This document shows positions 41,021 through 49,104 of a DNA stretch of 64,000 nt, piece by piece. Positions within the stretch are counted from its first letter, which is position 1. Each line of letters starts with the position of its first letter. Position numbers and translations under genes: made by a program. Location of the stretch: NCBI GenBank assembly GCA_963702215.1, contig OY969726.1, positions 3,288,609 to 3,352,608 of the forward strand. The letters are read 5' to 3'. The notes beneath the pieces were generated by a model. That model had not been told where the DNA came from. It saw nothing but the letters and a program-made list of their open reading frames with translations, and searched no databases. Source of the DNA: an uncultured Bacteroidota bacterium. GTDB taxonomy: Bacteria; Bacteroidota; Ignavibacteria; Palsa-1295.

Positions 41021-42208
41021 ATGCCCACCGCGCCTCCGCAACAATCCGCTTACGACCGTTTCCGCCGAACGAAGTACTTTTCTTCGCTCGATGGCTTGCG
41101 CGCGATCAGCATTCTCGCGGTTATGTGGTATCATGCGCCAGAACTCCGCCCGATCTGGCGAACCGGCTTTCTCGGAGTCCATCTGTTTTTCGTCATCAGC
41201 GGATTTCTGATCACGACAATTCTGCTCCGCGAAAAATCTGATTATGGTCGCATTTCGCTGAAGAATTTCTACATACGCCGCACGCTTCGCATTTTCCCGG
41301 CCTATTATCTCACGCTTGGGCTGTTCCTGGCAGCGTGCCTTGCTACTGTGGAACTTCGCGGCGCGCCGTTCGCTATTTATCTGCACAATCTGCCCTCGTT
41401 CCTCACCTATACCTCGAACTGGTTTGTGTTTCCGGGAGGGTGGTCGCCGGCGAATCCTCACGGGCGGGTGGTTTTTGTAGCGGCATGGTCACTTGCGACG
41501 GAAGAGCAGTTCTATCTTTTCTGGCCGTGGATCGTAGCCTTTACCCGCCGTTGGTTTACTCCCGTCATCGTAATGATTTTGCTCATTGCGGCAAATGAGC
41601 TTATCAAGCTTCGCGATGGCTACTCCTTTTTTCTGACGGGGTTTCCGCTCCCGATCATCATCATCAACAGTGTCGCGACAGCGATTTGCTTAGGCTGCCT
41701 CGCCGCGTATGCCTTGCACCATAAAAAAAGTTTTCGTTTTGCGTGGCGCATCTTTGGGCAGCGTTGGAGTGCTCCGATTTTTATGGCGCTCATGGTCTTG
41801 GTTTGCACCGTTCCGAACGAGGCGTTGCTCTATGTTGGCCGGATGTTCTATATTTGTATCGCCATGACTTTCGCGGTGATCGCGTGTTCGATTCGCGGCG
41901 ATCACGCGCTGGTTCCCGCACTCTCGAATCGAGTCATCCGCTATATTGGGAGCATCAGCTATGGGATGTATCTCTTCCATCCGTTCGGCATCAATCTGAC
42001 GGACAAGTTCTTCGCGTTCTCAAAAAGCTGGCCGGCTCTGCAATTCCTGTTCATCGTCGGAATCACGATGGCAATTGCCTCACTCAGCTATTGGACGTAC
42101 GAGCGATTTTTCTTGAATCTAAAGGCTAAATTTACCGCGGGCCGCGCCGCGCCGAGTGCGAAGCTGGAACCTTTGCCCGCTATTGTGCCCGCCGCTATCG
42201 AAGAATGA
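41021..42208 (+). CDS. acyltransferase family 3 (membrane O-acyltransferase)
   Basis: LDGLRAISILAVMWYHA...GVHLFFVISGFLITTILL matches the acyltransferase_3 signature. Confidence 0.75.
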   Translation: MPTAPPQQSAYDRFRRTKYFSSLDGLRAISILAVMWYHAPELRPIWRTGFLGVHLFFVISGFLITTILLREKSDYGRISLKNFYIRRTLRIFPAYYLTLGLFLAACLATVELRGAPFAIYLHNLPSFLTYTSNWFVFPGGWSPANPHGRVVFVAAWSLATEEQFYLFWPWIVAFTRRWFTPVIVMILLIAANELIKLRDGYSFFLTGFPLPIIIINSVATAICLGCLAAYALHHKKSFRFAWRIFGQRWSAPIFMALMVLVCTVPNEALLYVGRMFYICIAMTFAVIACSIRGDHALVPALSNRVIRYIGSISYGMYLFHPFGINLTDKFFAFSKSWPALQFLFIVGITMAIASLSYWTYERFFLNLKAKFTAGRAAPSAKLEPLPAIVPAAIEE

Positions 42209-44108
42209 CGAGATTGCGATCCACTACGACAACGCCGCTTTGGATCACGACGTGATACACGCCTGCCGGGAGCAGATGAATATCGAGCGAAATGGAATTC
42301 GCGCCGCTCGGCTGGATAGATTCATCGTGGCTCAGGACTTCATTCCCTTTTAGATCGAAGAGGCGAATACGCGCGGTGCGCGCTGCGCTCGAAGAGATGT
42401 TCATGGTGATGGCGTTCCCGCTCGCGGGGTCCGGATCAATCGCGCCGACACTGAATTCATCCGCATCGATGGCCCGCACCGACTCTTGTCCCGCAGCCGG
42501 TGCCGTTAGCGGGCCGGCAACATAGGCGAAAATATCGCCATCGTGGTAGCTGGGCTGGCGGTTTTCCGTCCAACTCGCGACGAAGTAGCTGCCGTAAGCA
42601 TCACTTGTAGCATAATCGCCAACGAAATCCCCGCCCTCCGCCGTGACGGTCAGAGGATTGAATAAATCAGAGCCCATTGTATTCAGTGTGGCGGGCGAAT
42701 TGTAGTTACACCAAACAGCGCGTGACTTCACGTTCAGTACCGTATCCTCCTCCGAGCTGCTCATCGAAATATACGCGGAATGCGTAACCGGGTCGATCGC
42801 CACCCACGGCATGTAGTGATCGTTGTTGATGCTTGACCTTGTGCCGATTTGTGCCGGAGCGCTCCAATCCTTGCCCAAATCGGTGGAACTAATCTCGTAC
42901 AACGCCGCGTCGGCGTTGAATTCGTCGTAGGTTCCATAGACGGCACGGATGGTGTTGCCAGAATCCACATCGAAGCAAGGATACGGCGAGGCGCGGAATC
43001 CATTCGGCCCTTTCAATCCGTTACGGCCCTGGTCGATCGGCGGAAAATCGGTGAAGGCATGCATCGGATAATCCTGAAACGTGGCGCCACCATCGGTAGA
43101 AATGCTCATTCCTTCGCTCTTGTCCGTAACCGTGGAATCGGTAATCGTTCCATAGTAGTGCATCGATGCGATGAACGCCGTTCCATGCTGGCCGACTCGC
43201 AGCAGTGCAAAATCGCCATAATAGGTGGAAAAAGGCATGGGCGAGGACCACGTCACGCCATGATCGTCGCTGTGGGCAACATAATGGATGGCAGAGTCCG
43301 CCAGAGTATTTCCTGTGTTATCATACTCGGTCCATGCGATATAGAGCCGGCCGTGATAGGGACTCGAGGGATCGTTGTCCACCGCGATGGTTTCCTTGTC
43401 TTCGAAGGCATTATTATTTTGATTCCCAACGACAGGGTTCCCAAGCGTCCAGTGTATGCCATCGGTGCTGTGCGCAACCATCAGATCGGAATATCCACCC
43501 AGTTCCGGATACATCAGGAACGAATAGTAGAACATGCCGGCATCATTGCAGACGATCATCGGGTCGCCCCATTCCTCCGCACCGGGATCGTTGGTTGCCA
43601 GCGGCAAGCGGTACGTTTTCCAGGTAAAGCCGCCATCCGACGTGAGGTAGGCGGGCATGCCCAGCGTATTCATGCCTGTTGCTTGACCATTCGATTTCAT
43701 TTCGAGATCGTTGGCGCCAGCGACGATCAGATTCGGGTTCCTGCGGTTAATCGCGATGCTCGGTTCGTCCTCATCCTCGATGGAGCGGCTAATATCAGTG
43801 TGAATATTGGTGTCGATCGATTGAACGGTAGCATCGTTCTTACCATGATTGGCATTGCCGGAACCGTAGCCCAACCCGAGCGCGAGCGCCGCCTTGCAAT
43901 TGATCCATCGCGAAAATCCATCGCAGGCATGGTAAAGCGTCAGTCCATGTGGGTAAGCCGCAAGCTCCTTTTGCACCTGCGCCTGGAACGCGGAATCCGC
44001 GCCACTTGGCGCGATGCCAGCCGCCGTGCGGCTTTGCGCGCGAGTTCCGGGCGAATAAAGCGTGACTGCCGCAAGAAAAACGGCAACCGAGAAGCGAAGA
44101 CTTTTCAT
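42195..44108 (-). CDS. secreted BNR/Asp-box repeat (sialidase/sortilin-like) protein with a T9SS C-terminal sorting domain
   Basis: Signal peptide MKSLRFSVAVFLAAVTLYSPGTRAQ. Asp-box motifs STDGIHWT, SDDHGVTWS, STDGGATF, STDLGKDWS. C-terminal T9SS domain ...RIRLFDLKGNEVLSHD...AGVYHVVIQSGVVVVDRNLVILR. Confidence 0.6.
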   Translation of the reverse strand: MKSLRFSVAVFLAAVTLYSPGTRAQSRTAAGIAPSGADSAFQAQVQKELAAYPHGLTLYHACDGFSRWINCKAALALGLGYGSGNANHGKNDATVQSIDTNIHTDISRSIEDEDEPSIAINRRNPNLIVAGANDLEMKSNGQATGMNTLGMPAYLTSDGGFTWKTYRLPLATNDPGAEEWGDPMIVCNDAGMFYYSFLMYPELGGYSDLMVAHSTDGIHWTLGNPVVGNQNNNAFEDKETIAVDNDPSSPYHGRLYIAWTEYDNTGNTLADSAIHYVAHSDDHGVTWSSPMPFSTYYGDFALLRVGQHGTAFIASMHYYGTITDSTVTDKSEGMSISTDGGATFQDYPMHAFTDFPPIDQGRNGLKGPNGFRASPYPCFDVDSGNTIRAVYGTYDEFNADAALYEISSTDLGKDWSAPAQIGTRSSINNDHYMPWVAIDPVTHSAYISMSSSEEDTVLNVKSRAVWCNYNSPATLNTMGSDLFNPLTVTAEGGDFVGDYATSDAYGSYFVASWTENRQPSYHDGDIFAYVAGPLTAPAAGQESVRAIDADEFSVGAIDPDPASGNAITMNISSSAARTARIRLFDLKGNEVLSHDESIQPSGANSISLDIHLLPAGVYHVVIQSGVVVVDRNLVILR

Positions 44109-44394
44109 GTTCGTTTGAAAAAAGTGAAACCCTCTAAATAGAAGACCCGCGAAACGGCAAAAGGTAACAGCCTTTTCGAAGAATTATTCCCTGAAAATGA
44201 AGCAGCGTTCATGCCGCCCAGTGCCGGAGGCACGCAGTAGCCCCGAAGGGGGGAAGTACCCGCAGCCCAGAGCCTGCCCTCGACCCGATCGCGGGTGGAA
44301 CGAAGTGGAACCCTGGGTACGCAAAGCCATCATAACCCGTTAGCCCTGCAAGGGCGATGTACGCCGATTCAGTCCCGTTAGGGACGGCATATTC

Positions 44395-44567
44395 GTAGCC
44401 CAGTGCGTAAGCGCTGGGATTGGGATTGAAAAAAGATTCCATAGCTCCGTAGGAGCGATATATTCCCCGCGTGATAATATGCCGCTCCTACGGAGCTTGG
44501 GATTCTTTGGCTTTTCGCAACCCAGCGCTTACGCACTGGGCTACGAATATTGCACTCCTACGGAGCT
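44395..44567. repeat. large nested inverted repeat (~65-nt arms) immediately after the last small ORF of the island
   Basis: Arm 1 at 44395..44457 consists of block A (GTAGCCCAGTGCGTAAGCGCTGGG), a spacer, then block B (AGCTCCGTAGGAGCG). Arm 2 at 44483..44544 is its reverse complement, with blocks A and B perfect and the middle divergent. A third B-like copy lies at 44553..44567. Confidence 0.6.
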
Positions 44568-44693
44568 GGGATTCGTTCCCCCCACAATCCTGATTTCCTC
44601 CGCGCTTAAACCGTAAAGCTGATAGACGAGTGTATCGATCTCCGCACGCGCGCCCGCGATCTGTCGGGTGAGGAGGGTGCGATCAGACATGCA
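44541..44693 (-). other. 50-aa ORF that consists only of the conserved C-terminal tail of a Type II/IIG N6-adenine methyltransferase (remnant)
   Basis: MSDRTLLTRQIAGARAEIDTLVYQLYGLSAEEIRIVGGTNPSSVGVQYS. It is about 80% identical at the nucleotide level to the 3' end of the R-M gene at 45751..45860. Its ATG overlaps the stop of the 203-aa ORF (ATGTCTGA). Confidence 0.4.
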
Positions 44694-45294
44694 TGAGTTC
44701 TCGGAACTTTGCCTCGACCTCGTGCCTGGTCGCTGCAATCTGACTCTCCAATAAAAGCAGCGCCTGTTGCGAAGTCTTAACAATGTCCAGCTGGCTATTC
44801 GCTCCAACACCAACGCCATACAAAGCATTTTGGAGCGGCGCAAAGGCGGCATCAATTTCGGAACGAAGTTTGTCGATTTGCTCGCAGAGCGAATCATTCA
44901 GCCAAATTTTGTTCGATTCATATGAAGCAACGAAATCTTTCAGGGCGTGCAAGAAATCATCCGCCTTAGGCCATTTGCTTTCGTGAGCCTCACCGGGAAC
45001 ACGTATAAGGTCCCTTCCTTTGCCAAACACCTGCGACAACTTAGAATATAGTTCCTTAAATACAACACCCTGTTCCTCTCGTAATCGAGCCAACCGGATC
45101 TCGTCCCACTTGTTGTTTCGGGCTATTTCACCTTTCAATTTTTCCAGTTCTCGATTTGAAGCACTGGCTAATTCGTTTTTGTATTTTTCCAAACCTTTCT
45201 CGGCTACCACTTCAGCCCGCTTCTTCACATAAGCGGGTATTCCGATCACTATCACAGCGAGAAGCGCTATGTCGATAATGTTTGATATGCTCAT
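44683..45294 (-). CDS. hypothetical membrane-anchored coiled-coil protein (cassette gene in the R-M island)
   Basis: 203 aa. N-terminal TM helix IIDIALLAVIVIGIPAYV, then Lys/Glu-rich coiled-coil. Its ATG overlaps the stop of an upstream R-M tail fragment (ATGA). Confidence 0.45.
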   Translation of the reverse strand: MSISNIIDIALLAVIVIGIPAYVKKRAEVVAEKGLEKYKNELASASNRELEKLKGEIARNNKWDEIRLARLREEQGVVFKELYSKLSQVFGKGRDLIRVPGEAHESKWPKADDFLHALKDFVASYESNKIWLNDSLCEQIDKLRSEIDAAFAPLQNALYGVGVGANSQLDIVKTSQQALLLLESQIAATRHEVEAKFRELMHV

Positions 45295-45400
45295 GCTTTT
45301 CCCTCCACTATCCTAATTTCCTCCTCGCTCAAACCGTAAAGCTGGTAGACGAGATTATCGATCTCCGCGTCCACGCCCGCGATGTGGCGGGTGAGGATAA
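45291..45400 (-). repeat. second copy (~92% identical) of the R-M gene 3' tail, an in-frame remnant encoding ...LTRHIAGVDAEIDNLVYQLYGLSEEEIRIVEGKA*
   Basis: Aligns to 45751..45860, the true 3' end of the R-M gene. It is preceded on the - strand by a terminator hairpin. Confidence 0.6.
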
Positions 45401-45429
45401 TAAAAAGGGCATACAATGATGTATGCCCT
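45396..45429 (-). terminator. rho-independent terminator for the - strand
   Basis: Read on the - strand: AGGGCATACA-TCAT-TGTATGCCCT followed by TTTTTATTAT. This is a 10-bp stem plus a T-run, downstream of the small SD-led ORF. Confidence 0.6.
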
Positions 45430-45437
45430 AAGTGGTA

Positions 45438-45599
45438 TCAAGTTTTCTTGACCCATGTCGCTCCGTGCGCGTTAGCATCGCCATTCACATTACACGGAGG
45501 GAACGTTTCCCCTGACTTAATGTAGATGGTATGAGTAGTGTGTTTCGAACAGTAATAAGTACCGCTAGATTCACATTTACCTCCCGTAGATCCGGTCAT
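45438..45599 (-). CDS. small (53 aa) Cys-containing protein with a canonical Shine-Dalgarno sequence
   Basis: AAAGGAGGTGATTAA-ATG; MTGSTGGKCESSGTYYCSKHTTHTIYIKSGETFPPCNVNGDANAHGATWVKKT, stop TGA. Not in the ORF track because it is under 60 aa. It sits in an AT-rich stretch immediately downstream of the R-M gene. Confidence 0.5.
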   Translation of the reverse strand: MTGSTGGKCESSGTYYCSKHTTHTIYIKSGETFPPCNVNGDANAHGATWVKKT

Positions 45600-45750
45600 T
45601 TAATCACCTCCTTTCATTAGCAATTATTATCACTCATGTTCAGTGAGTGCTAATATATTAACTATGTTTGGAGCCAAGTGAATCCTCGAAAACACGGTTG
45701 TTTATCCACATAAATGATAACGACTTCCCGTTTTTCCACATTCTAAAAAA

Positions 45751-48700
45751 TCAACCCTCCATTATCCTAATTTCCTCCTCGCTCAAACCGTAAAGCTGGT
45801 AAACGAGTTTATCGATCTCCGCATCCACGCCCGCGATCTGGCGAGTGAGGAGGGTGCGATTCTGGCCATCGCTCATCTTTTTAAGTTGGTTATGCAGATC
45901 GATTTCCCTTTCAACGTATTTTTCCATCAGCTTTATCTGCTTCGTTGAAACATCTTTTGGTACGGGAATCTTTCGCAAATCGCCGACCGATAATCGCGGA
46001 AAGGCATTCGCTACCATCTTGTTCGAAATGTACGGGTAAATTCTTGAGATTAATGTGGAATCTAAAATTCCCACAAGATATTTCATTGAGTAGTCGGATT
46101 CGGGAAGTGGATTGATGTTGAGGATGGTCTTGTAATTACAATATGTATCCTCCGTGTACGTTGCTTGCAGTGCGTGGGGTTGCTTTCCCGATATTTCGCG
46201 AATCAGAATTCTTGGCCCTTGTAGCCAGTCCATCGTTCGGTAATCGTGAAGCCAGGGGCCGTACTTAATCCACTGGCCTCTCACCCTCTCAAGCTCATAG
46301 CGAGAAACGTCACTACCCGCAAGCTCTGGAAGATATTCGGAAGACAGCTTTTTATCGGCATGAAAAACTCTGTTCTCGATTTGTTGTTTTGTGTGCTTAG
46401 AACTATTGTATGCCTGGCATCCGAGCGAAGCACGCGCGACCGTTCCCAGCGGAATCGATTGCTTTAGGATTTGATCCGCGAGTTTTCCCATAGGATCCAT
46501 CCTTCTCGTCTCAATGATGTGTCCTTCGTTTTTAAACCAATCAATCTGCTTTGCGTGGTATTCTTGCCCGCTCGTAGGATCGGAATCGGCGTCGATAACA
46601 CGCACTTCGTGCGAATCGCTGGCTACTATTTTCGAAAGAAAGACCAGCGCCGTGTTTACGGTTGCGGACTCGAAAACGAATCCTTTGAATGTTACGAGTT
46701 CGTCTATCTGAGTCTTTTCAAGAATATACTTCCTTAAGGACTTGGTAAAGACCTGAGTAAGCCAAGGATTTGGAACGATAAATCCAAGCTTTCCTTCTGG
46801 CTTGAGCAGTTCTATTCCTCGTTCGATAAAAAGCTGAAATAGGTCTGCCTTGTATTCTGCTGTTCCGAAGTGTAATAAATATTTGGCGGTTCTAGCATCG
46901 AACAGGTCTTTACCTATAACCACATACGGCGGGTTCCCAATGACGACATCGAAGCCGCCGTTTCGCATAATATCGGGGAAGGCTTGCTTCCAGTCCATCG
47001 GATTTATTTTGGCGGTGTCCGGGGAATAACCACCCCCTGCCCCCTCCTTGAAAAGGAGGGGGTTGTTGTAGTAATCGGTTCCGATGAGGGAGTTGCCGCA
47101 GAGGATGTTCCGGTCGAGATCGGGGAGCAGTCGCTCGGCGGTGTCGTAGGCAATGCGCTGGGTTCCTCCGTCGCTCCCGCCGCTCTCTCCGCCTTCGAGG
47201 ACTTTGAGCATCAAATTCAGCTTCGCCACTTCCACCGCGTTCCTGTCAATATCGACGCCGTGAATGTGGTCGAGCAAGATGCGCTTCCGCTCGCGCGGGG
47301 AAAGGCGATAATCTTTTTTCGTGGGGTCGGAAGTGGGAATGCGGTCGAGAACTTTCTTTTTTGTCCAGGATTCCGGCTCATTGGCGAGATAGAATTTGAG
47401 ATACCAATCGAGTAAATACTGATACGCTCCGAGCAGGAAGGAACCGGAGCCGCAGGCGGGATCTAAAATTGTGGGTGTGGGACATGCTTTAGCTTGTCCC
47501 TTCTTATCTTTGGACCAAGCTAAAGCATGGTCCACACCCAGCATTTTTCCGACGGTATTCTTCACAATATAATCGACAATATAGCTCGGCGTGTAATAGA
47601 CGCCGCCGGCTTTTTTTACTTCGGGCTTTTCTTCGACGCGGGCGTTGCCGCCTTTCGTCAGCGTGATGACTTGTCCCAGGAACTGCTCATACACGTGGCC
47701 CAGAATATCCGAGGGAACGATATCGAATGCATACGGACTTTCGGGATAATAAAGATGCCTGATGATGTCGGTGAGCACTTTATCGTCAATGGCAAGTCGC
47801 GGGGTGAGCGCGTCGAATCCTTCGCGGCTCTTCTCTTTCCTGAAATGGAAGAGACCGGAATTGAAGCGGTCGTCGGCGGCGCGGAAACGGTTGAGGAGAT
47901 TCTGGTAAACAGAACCAACCACCCCCCGTCCCCCGCCTTGAAAAGGCGGGGGAGTTTTTGTTTTTTGGGTTCCGTCTATGAGATAGCGCAGCCTGGCGTC
48001 GAGGGCAAGGTTCCCATATTGCTCGATCTTTCGGTCCCTCGCAGATGCGGAGCATGATAATGCGGTCGAGCGTAATTTGCACGGCGCTGTTTAGCTCGGA
48101 TTCGGACAGCCCTTTGTTGCGGAGCGCGATATTTTCGGCAAGCTTCTTTCGCCAGGCGATCATATCGGCGAGGAACTGTTTATCGAAGGGCGTGGTGCCG
48201 CGCTTGCCTTTTGCCTGCGCGGCGTATTTATCGAAGCGTCCTTTCCAGACGGCTTCGCGGGAAAACGTTTCCACGAGCCAGTCCCATTTCTCTTCGTACT
48301 GTTCGAAGTTGAAAAATTCGATGCGGTCTTTATAGGGCGCGTCGGTGGGTTTGGGAACGGAAGTAGTTTGATAAACGGCGAATTCCTCGAAATCGGAAAG
48401 CAGTGAGATGGAAAGTCCGGCGCTCCAGGCGTAGCGTTTCAATTGATAGGCCGGCGCGACGTCCGTTGCGAGGTGAACTTTGGGCGCTTTGCATTCGAGA
48501 AAGAATTTCTTCTCGCTGCCCACGCGGAAGGTATAATCGGGAGCCTTCATTGCGCCTTCAATGCGAAGCGAATCCTCGTGGATGACCTCTTTGTAGGCTT
48601 CGGCGAGTCCGGCACGATTCGTCATATCCCATCCGAGTTCCCACCAGAAGGGATTGATAAATTCCTCCCGAAGCTGCGCTTCTTTGTATTGGGCGCTCTT

Positions 48701-48766
48701 ATAGGATTCGCGGTGATCGCGAAACCGCTCGACGAGATCCTGAATTGTGCGAGGAAACATGTACAA
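45751..48766 (-). CDS. Type IIG restriction-modification enzyme (MmeI/Eco57I-like): N-terminal endonuclease, gamma-class N6-adenine methyltransferase and C-terminal target-recognition region, split by a frameshift
   Basis: ORF 47786..48766 gives the N-terminal nuclease domain (FINPFWWELGWD...LDRIIMLRICE). In a -1 frame it continues as DRKIEQYGNLALDARLRYLIDG...VVGSVYQNLLNRFRAADDRFNSGLFHF into ORF 45751..47922 (motif I DPACGSGSFLLGAYQ, motif IV DVVIGNPPYV, conserved tail LVYQLYGLSEEEIRIMEG). There is an extra G in the GGG run near 48036. Confidence 0.8.
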
Positions 48767-49104
48767 AAATACGAAAACATTGAACCTGGATCACGCGAAT
48801 GATCGCTCATCCGCTGCGGATTGGATGGATTTTCGGGATTACTATCGGAAAAAACGAAGAGTTCCAGTCCAAGGGGAACTATTAGATACGTATCTTATGT
48901 TTGATATTATGGAAGGGTTGTATTCGTTAAATGATTCGTATCTTTCATGAAGAAAGGATTGTGATTCTTTGAGAAATAAATATTGGTTCATGAACACGCA
49001 TCCAACACACACTATAAAACATTTTGGGCTTCTTTCTAGCAGAATGAAAAAATCAAACGTGCTCATTATGGATTTTTCCGATTTTTCTTCACTGCCTTCC
49101 CAGT

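Follow-up and report, generated by a model that had tools for sequence, protein, structure and literature searches.

Gene-less derivatives of IS200/IS605 elements (PATEs/MITEs) are known, and the two ends of the classical members are not inverted copies of one another and contain no 100-nt three-hairpin module. In the REPIN-RAYT systems (Nunvar 2010; Bertels & Rainey 2011, PMC3116915; Di Nocera 2013, PMC3733652), a REP is a single 20–40 nt palindrome with a 5' (G)TAG foot, inverted copies flank a gene for a Y1 HUH enzyme, and gene-less intergenic dimers fold into long hairpins and gather in BIME-like clusters. TIRtrons (TIRYT) are Acidobacterial Y1 genes with long inverted repeats, and these TIRs also occur singly, as dimers and in groups (Di Nocera et al. 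2013, PMC3733652). A Y---Q--HH signature defines subclass 1.2 of the TnpA-Y1 proteins, which generally lacks IS200-type terminal structures and IS properties and is found mostly in Cyanobacteria and Bacteroidetes (Quentin et al. 2018, PMC6006769). The Rfam family Acido-Lenti-1 (RF01687) was described from 89 sequences with no function assigned, the only genomic context noted for it being an occasional proximity to group II introns (Weinberg et al. 2010, PMC2864571). A 2026 preprint treats it as a possible regulatory ncRNA, and our literature search found no link between Acido-Lenti-1 and a transposase.

The window analysed here is a 64,000-nt stretch of DNA, for which an earlier note had described a nested palindrome of ~150 nt at the edge of a genomic island. 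Based on the comparisons that follow, we consider it likely that this palindrome derives from a compact IS200-type element and is a non-autonomous form of it, resembling a REPIN or MITE. The arm blocks were found as described, each exact twice and on opposite strands. The copy search proposed for them, run in the 64-kb window, returned the 24-nt block GTAGCCCAGTGCGTAAGCGCTGGG exactly two times, at 44395-44418 (+) and 44521-44544 (-), a result seen in none of 100 shuffles, and placed the 15-nt block AGCTCCGTAGGAGCG at 44443-44457 (+) and 44483-44497 (-). A further copy of the 15-nt block at 44553-44567 (-), AGCTCCGTAGGAGTG, stands where the earlier note put a third copy, with one mismatch and thus not identical. 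The GGGATT motif is repeated as reported (44416, 44422, 44499 and 44568). The term nested is apt, since both blocks fold into small hairpins of their own, CCCAGTGC-GTAA-GCGCTGGG for the 24-nt block and GCTCC-GTA-GGAGC for the 15-nt block. A repeat finder resolved the inverted repeat into outer arms (44389-44441/44498-44550, 53 nt, 79%) and inner arms (44432-44464/44476-44508, 33 nt, 85%), which leave a truly unpaired centre of ~11 nt in place of the 25-nt loop proposed earlier.

The palindrome is also real in its folding, which is much more stable than that of shuffled sequence. RNA folding of 44200-44600 gave z = -9.3 for one strand and z = -10.5 for the other, the latter being the - strand (401 nt, -212.7 kcal/mol), and DNA folding of 44366-44572 gave z = -16.2. 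The ~150-nt extent was slightly underestimated, as the structure reaches outward to 44366-44572 through two outer hairpins, 44372-44385 and 44554-44566, that are unlike in sequence between the arms and keep the fold. Additional repeat material lies at 44217-44362 (Table 1).

Table 1. Positions of the repeat units, neighbouring ORFs and insertion in the window (H1–H3, hairpins of a unit; R1, covariance model described in the text)
Feature	Positions	Strand	Remarks
BNR gene	42195-44108	-	
Insertion	44196-49104		L202 synteny, BNR-upstream homology, composition, Pfam
Lone H1/H3-type hairpin module	44217-44233	+	AGTGCC-GGA-GGCACG; R1 partial, positions 70-86, 6.2 bits
Unit 3, decayed	44234-44362	+	tandem, upstream of unit 1; R1 with filters off, 26.9 bits, E 6.6e-7
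Unit 1 (left arm)	44366-44472	+	R1 69.3 bits, E 1.9e-15
Unit 1 H1	44372-44385	+	GTCCC-GTTA-GGGAC
Unit 1 GTAG foot	44395-44398	+	
Unit 1 H2	44399-44418	+	CCCAGTGC-GTAA-GCGCTGGG; A-rich spacer after
Unit 1 H3	44444-44456	+	GCTCC-GTA-GGAGC
Centre between the two H3 hairpins	44458-44482		site of the 441-nt Y1 transposase gene in complete elements
Unit 2 (right arm)	44468-44572	-	R1 75.6 bits, E 5.4e-17
Unit 2 H3'	44484-44496	-	
Unit 2 H2'	44521-44540	-	
Unit 2 foot	44541-44544	-	
Unit 2 H1'	44554-44566	-	closing G.T pair on - strand only
118-aa ORF	44541-44897	-	other frame; overlaps the 203-aa gene and runs into the right arm
203-aa ORF	44683-45294	-	called protein
Eco57I-type methylase ORF	45751-47922	-	723 aa as listed; 675 aa in source annotation
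HSDR_N-like ORF, Eco57I-type	47786-48766	-	326 aa

Each arm represents one repeat unit of ~100 nt, whose anatomy was drawn from 140 lined-up instances: AG-H1-CG-RCA, ~6 nt, a TAG foot with H2, an A-rich spacer of ~20 nt, and AG-H3-CG-RCAC. Units 1 and 2 are convergent, with their H3 ends facing and touching each other. To describe the family we used an alignment (A1) of 84 homologous units from at least seven phyla and the covariance model R1 built from it. In A1, 93.9% of the cells are paired compared to 83.9% in shuffles, double-sided changes number 133 as against 42.8, and in slid controls the paired cells fall to 22–48%. All three hairpins covary: every pair of H1 and H3 does so, and the variable H2 pair is distributed as GC47/CG28/UG5/UA2 across the 84 units. 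The TAG of the foot is invariant, which for most rows of A1 was imposed by the search pattern, and the base before it varies (T46/A19/G13/C6), so that the foot is NTAG and not strictly GTAG. Exactly two strong R1 matches occur in the window, both full-length at 69–76 bits; the 64 kb hold this one unit cluster, and R1 matches nothing elsewhere in them.

An Rfam scan at a relaxed threshold matched RF01687 to unit 1 (44371-44418 (-), 34.7 bits, E 3e-6) and unit 2 (44521-44567 (+), 27.7 bits, E 2e-4), the gathering score being 37. In each arm, the 46-nt model is covered in full (positions 1-46) by H2, linker and H1; both stems form, and the conserved GCUA of the linker, equivalent to the TAGC of the foot, is in place. 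The window copies are clear relatives of Acido-Lenti-1 just under the cut-off. The Rfam model differs from the unit in that it omits H3, runs on the reverse strand and is listed as an sRNA. The neighbourhood of the lone module also has a weak RF01687 match (44220-44251). Matches to mir-5728, MIR391 and MIR398 in Rfam were rejected as generic long hairpins far below thresholds.

In unit 3 the H2 loop is swapped for an insertion of ~40 nt (44266-44317) that starts with GCCTGCCCT. Similar insertions of 25–40 nt with this start replace GTAA in other loci (L257:3239, L264:1923, L293:3124) and form a small hairpin of their own, CCCT...AGGG. They may represent a subfamily with a long hairpin, or else a tiny second insertion that has the H2 loop as its target.

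A search with the H2 motif, using one genome per species, found at least 120 loci, mostly in Acidobacteriota among the matches listed; other hosts among these matches are Verrucomicrobiota, Planctomycetota, Armatimonadota, a Limnocylindrales MAG (L107, which we take to belong to the Chloroflexota), Hydrogenedentes, Ignavibacteria and Prevotella. A metagenome scan with a 23-mer also gave at least 120 loci, with none closely related to the window among the matches listed, and a 30-mer specific to the window, ATATTCGTAGCCCAGTGCGTAAGCGCTGGG, had no match in the metagenome scan. No paper matched a full-text search with four H2 sequence variants. The distribution of the units is intergenic, with 11% of them inside long ORFs compared to 60% of random positions. 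Of the 47 neighbouring pairs in the genome loci, 20 are convergent dimers whose units lie at most 25 nt apart, more than in any other arrangement, and the six-hairpin dimer of the window is present in Opitutia, Planctomycetota, Hydrogenedentes and IMG/VR viral contigs as well. Immediately ahead of the start of one conserved gene, orthologous positions in Acidobacterial MAGs hold either two tandem units (L171:1890-2300) or one (L115:5580-5790 and L201:2750-2960); such natural filled and empty states could be used to delimit the unit.

Variants of the dimer were also noted. On the IMG/VR contigs (L006, L011, L026, L041, L065 and L067; several of ~100 kb, from sample 3300045988), H2 reads CCCAGGGC-AWC-GCCCTGGG, the H2 copies are spaced at a constant 128 nt, and RF01687 matches are weak. 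The Opitutia MAG 336R_metabinner_52 has many unit copies. In this MAG, dimers lie within a second, larger palindromic family, GGGCCAAGGGG...GATAGCGATTT... (L124:5790-6350 and L169:5750-6350), of which another copy is free of the dimer (L118:4020-4320); by its arrangement, this looks like a nested insertion into another repeat.

In the window, the element lies between co-directional genes, 110 nt after the stop of the 203-aa gene and 258 nt before the BNR start. The BNR start at 44108 and the element from 44366 agree with the ~280 nt given by the earlier note. The partial overlap with coding sequence that it proposed finds no support: the ORF concerned, the 118-aa ORF, is uncalled, and since the 203-aa ORF is called, the nearest supported gene is 110 nt from the element. 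The 118-aa ORF has no Pfam or PHROG match, and its exact sequence is absent from the called proteins; it is a spurious short 'hypothetical protein' of the type that such GC-rich hairpin repeats generate. A phage tail remnant was rejected for both ORFs, as neither the 118-aa nor the 203-aa ORF has a tail-related PHROG or Pfam match.

Given the position between two co-directional genes and the very stable fold of the - strand, we considered that the host, whatever the origin of the palindrome, uses it as a terminator, insulator or mRNA-stabilising hairpin between the 203-aa gene and the BNR gene. REP elements can influence the stability of mRNAs and the termination of transcription, and some E. 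coli REPs act in this way. A passage in PMC3733652 describes such an effect. The present element, however, has no T-run after any hairpin and no terminator-like site in 44200-44600, and the two terminator-like sites in 43900-45400 are both inside the BNR gene. Nor do the units of the family favour gene 3' ends or any convergent, tandem or divergent order of their flanking genes. In the related locus L202, rarA and the BNR gene are separated by 70 nt without any such structure, so the BNR gene needs none. A role as terminator, one of the options of the earlier note, is not supported, and we regard this host function, also as a secondary use, as unlikely.

At several loci in other genomes, a unit runs directly into an ORF that starts with MSHTYAQNVIHVVFSTK. 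This ORF matches PF01797 (Y1_Tnp) at 92.5 bits and thus encodes a Y1 HUH transposase; it scores 70.5 bits with the NCBIfam model transpos_IS200 (cut-off 55) and 25.7 bits with the RAYT model REP_Tyr_transpos NF047646 (cut-off 80), which places it outside the RAYT (TnpA-REP) clade, and its closest solved structures are the IS608 and ISDra2 transposases. In 246 loci (1.67 Mb) we counted 39 Y1 domains and ~33 IS200-like genes, an enrichment measured on a biased sample, since the loci were picked by the H2 motif. The base-precise geometry of unit and Y1 gene is not explained by this selection bias. For most complete Y1 genes, a unit in the same orientation ends at the start codon and an inverted unit follows 0–4 nt past the stop. 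The complete packing, [unit→]ATG…147 aa…TAG[←unit], was found in at least 13 cases, with a spacing of 0–5 nt, and corresponds to an element of ~650 bp with a gene of 441 nt. We read 13 junctions base by base. On the left of these 13 complete elements, H3-CG-RCAC is followed directly by ATG/GTG TCC CAC; on the right, the stop TAG is followed directly by GTGYCG-H3'. The gene-flanking ends score 43–59 bits with RF01687, over the gathering score, and the arms in the window are homologous to them. Complete elements occur in Verrucomicrobia (L092), the Limnocylindrales MAG (L107), Hydrogenedentes (L159) and Acidobacteria, among others, and their Y1 proteins carry the Y---Q--HH signature, e.g., RYIQNQPAHH.

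The left and right ends of complete elements differ in H2 by a compensatory change, CGC/GCG vs CCC/GGG. The respective stems are CCCAGYGC..GCGCTGGG and CCCAGCCC..GGGCTGGG in L093, L107, L227, L249, L256, L279 and others. A GGAGG lies inside H3, 7 nt ahead of the Y1 start codon. In IS200, a hairpin is known to sequester the ribosome-binding site. The H2 difference together with the GGAGG in H3 suggests, by analogy with IS200, distinguishable left and right ends and hairpin-controlled translation.

The filing of Acido-Lenti-1 in Rfam offers another explanation, namely that the units are a structured small RNA gene or element whose hairpins act as sRNAs or as 5'/3' UTR structures. The RF01687 matches fit this explanation, the H1 and H3 loops would be UNCG tetraloops on the Rfam strand, and H3 could sequester the ribosome-binding site in the Y1 mRNA through its GGAGG. 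The motif was rated as probably RNA on the basis of covariation (PMC2864571). Covariation, however, does not distinguish RNA from ssDNA. The wobble pairs point to the other strand than the one annotated in Rfam, since on the NTAG strand H2 and H3 together have 22 G.T pairs vs 7 A.C pairs, and on the Rfam strand UCCG, rather than UUCG or UACG, would be the most frequent loop. On the NTAG strand the loops read C-GNA-G and GTAA, both of which are stable DNA mini-hairpin loops. Furthermore, units occur in both orientations relative to genes without preference and in inverted pairs around a transposase gene, and beside the window units there is no site resembling a promoter or a terminator. A structured RNA is an improbable reading of the element; a free-standing sRNA is disfavoured, and H3 may still act in the Y1 mRNA.

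To place the palindrome in its genomic context, we compared the window with loci that carry BNR homologues. L202 carries cmk, rarA, a 70-nt gap, BNR and acyltransferase in this order, with no island and no unit at the locus; its BNR ortholog (P0002) is 69% identical to that of the window, and the sequence upstream of the BNR gene is homologous up to ~44192. This synteny without the island defines window positions ~44196-49104 as an insertion of ~4.9 kb. L202 alone is informative on the island, since the upstream gene order differs in L203-L206. The insertion has a G+C content of 0.49–0.50 vs ~0.54 and contains a split Eco57I-type R-M gene, small ORFs, the 203-aa ORF and the repeat cluster. Eco57I-type homologues are single proteins of ~970 aa with both parts, and judging from this, the type IIG R-M gene has probably been frameshifted or otherwise split. 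Homologues of the methylase reach no more than 55% identity and come from scattered taxa, which does not allow a donor of the island to be named. The repeat cluster (44217-44572) forms the BNR-side end of the insertion, within ~20 nt of the point where homology to L202 resumes, which bears out the boundary position proposed by the earlier note. The contrary case named there was a relative that lacks the island and keeps the palindrome; L202, the one syntenic relative, carries neither.

This edge position raises the question whether the palindrome is an attachment or recombination site, or a terminal repeat, of the 4.9-kb R-M island that mediated its integration. REP/BIME clusters are hot spots for insertion and recombination, and no other units occur in the window or in the related loci sampled. 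However, the far edge of the island (48767-49104) has no unit or GC-rich hairpin, the two edges share no repeat, direct or inverted, that reaches 10 nt, and the island holds no Y1 gene, with no integrase or recombinase in or beside it. The nearby tRNA genes (tRNA-Asp and tRNA-Ala, 52.1-52.3 kb) are 7.5 kb off behind rarA, cmk and another ORF, i.e., behind housekeeping genes, and units are known hundreds of times elsewhere without an attached island. With no att-like repeats either, the attachment site suggested earlier finds no support, and we consider a role of the palindrome in the integration of the island very improbable. The proposal of a terminal inverted repeat was right as to the kind of structure, the arms being ends of a small Y1 element with its gene missing, and wrong as to the object, as they are not the ends of the 4.9-kb island.

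The reading as a non-autonomous derivative of an IS200-type element accounts for the window dimer as follows. The dimer has the orientation and the H3-to-H3 geometry of the ends of complete elements, with ~15–25 nt where the gene would be. No Y1 gene was found in the 64-kb window, and with no Y1 ORF there and ~25 nt between the arms, the element is at most non-autonomous. A complete element consists of a gene for a 147-aa Y1 (HUH) transposase between two inverted ends of ~100 nt, each with three GC-rich hairpins, the middle one having the conserved NTAG foot. In the window, two such ends would be joined with the gene missing, and a third, decayed end would lie alongside, an arrangement known from REP/BIME clusters. 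From what IS200/IS605 TnpA and the REP-associated Y1 enzymes do, we infer that a Y1 transposase supplied in trans would read the hairpins on single-stranded DNA and would cut and rejoin beside them. The element is rare in this lineage and lies at one end of the foreign R-M island, and most likely it arrived with the island or inserted beside it.

The comparison with REPIN-RAYT systems extends to the TAG-footed hairpin, the inverted copies around a Y1 HUH gene, the gene-less intergenic dimers with their long-hairpin fold and the BIME-like clusters, and the foot GT[AG]G that characterises REPINs is present in the window as GTAG at 44395-44398 and as its complement at 44541-44544. In contrast, the unit arm is ~100 nt with three hairpins where a REP is one short palindrome, the enzyme is IS200-type, H2 is shared across phyla whereas REPs are lineage-specific, and the copy number in the source genome looks very low (one cluster in 64 kb). 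No units were found in ~83 kb from the five loci with BNR homologues (L202-L206); the source genome is Kapabacteria-like, and the named relatives of the window BNR protein are Candidatus Kapaibacterium (Kapabacteria). This apparently low copy number, set against the tens to hundreds of copies typical of REPIN/RAYT hosts, fits a fossil better than an active population, and the window element may now be an inert fossil. With IS200/IS605 elements, the unit/Y1 elements share a Y1 HUH transposase of ~150 aa, hairpins at both ends, slight differences between left and right H2 that recall LE and RE, and a Shine-Dalgarno sequence inside a hairpin as in IS200; they differ in that their ends are inverted three-hairpin units of ~100 nt. 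TIRtrons are probably the same phenomenon as these elements, and the unit sequence had no match in the supplements of PMC3733652. The Y1 proteins share their signature with subclass 1.2, and the genes differ from the published description of that subclass in their highly structured ends and their location mostly in Acidobacteriota, which for these members disagrees with PMC6006769.

On balance, we lean towards the view that the Acido-Lenti-1 'sRNA' is not an RNA gene but the ssDNA recognition end of an IS200-like element of ~650 bp with a subclass 1.2 Y1 transposase, and that the gene-less dimers constitute a REPIN-like population in at least seven phyla and in phage contigs. As part of this view, the H2 hairpin and its TAG foot would be conserved far beyond the lineage-specific REPs. 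For the window, the palindrome becomes an ordinary object, a gene-less pair of transposon ends that marks foreign DNA. For Acido-Lenti-1, it would give a testable identity to an Rfam family to which no function has been given in 15 years and which recent genome papers continue to interpret as a regulatory ncRNA, and it would supply a DNA partner for a subclass of Y1 transposases thought to have none. If confirmed, genome annotation should drop the sRNA label for these units, and the unit/Y1 pair would be a new system for hairpin-guided ssDNA transposition outside the Proteobacteria.
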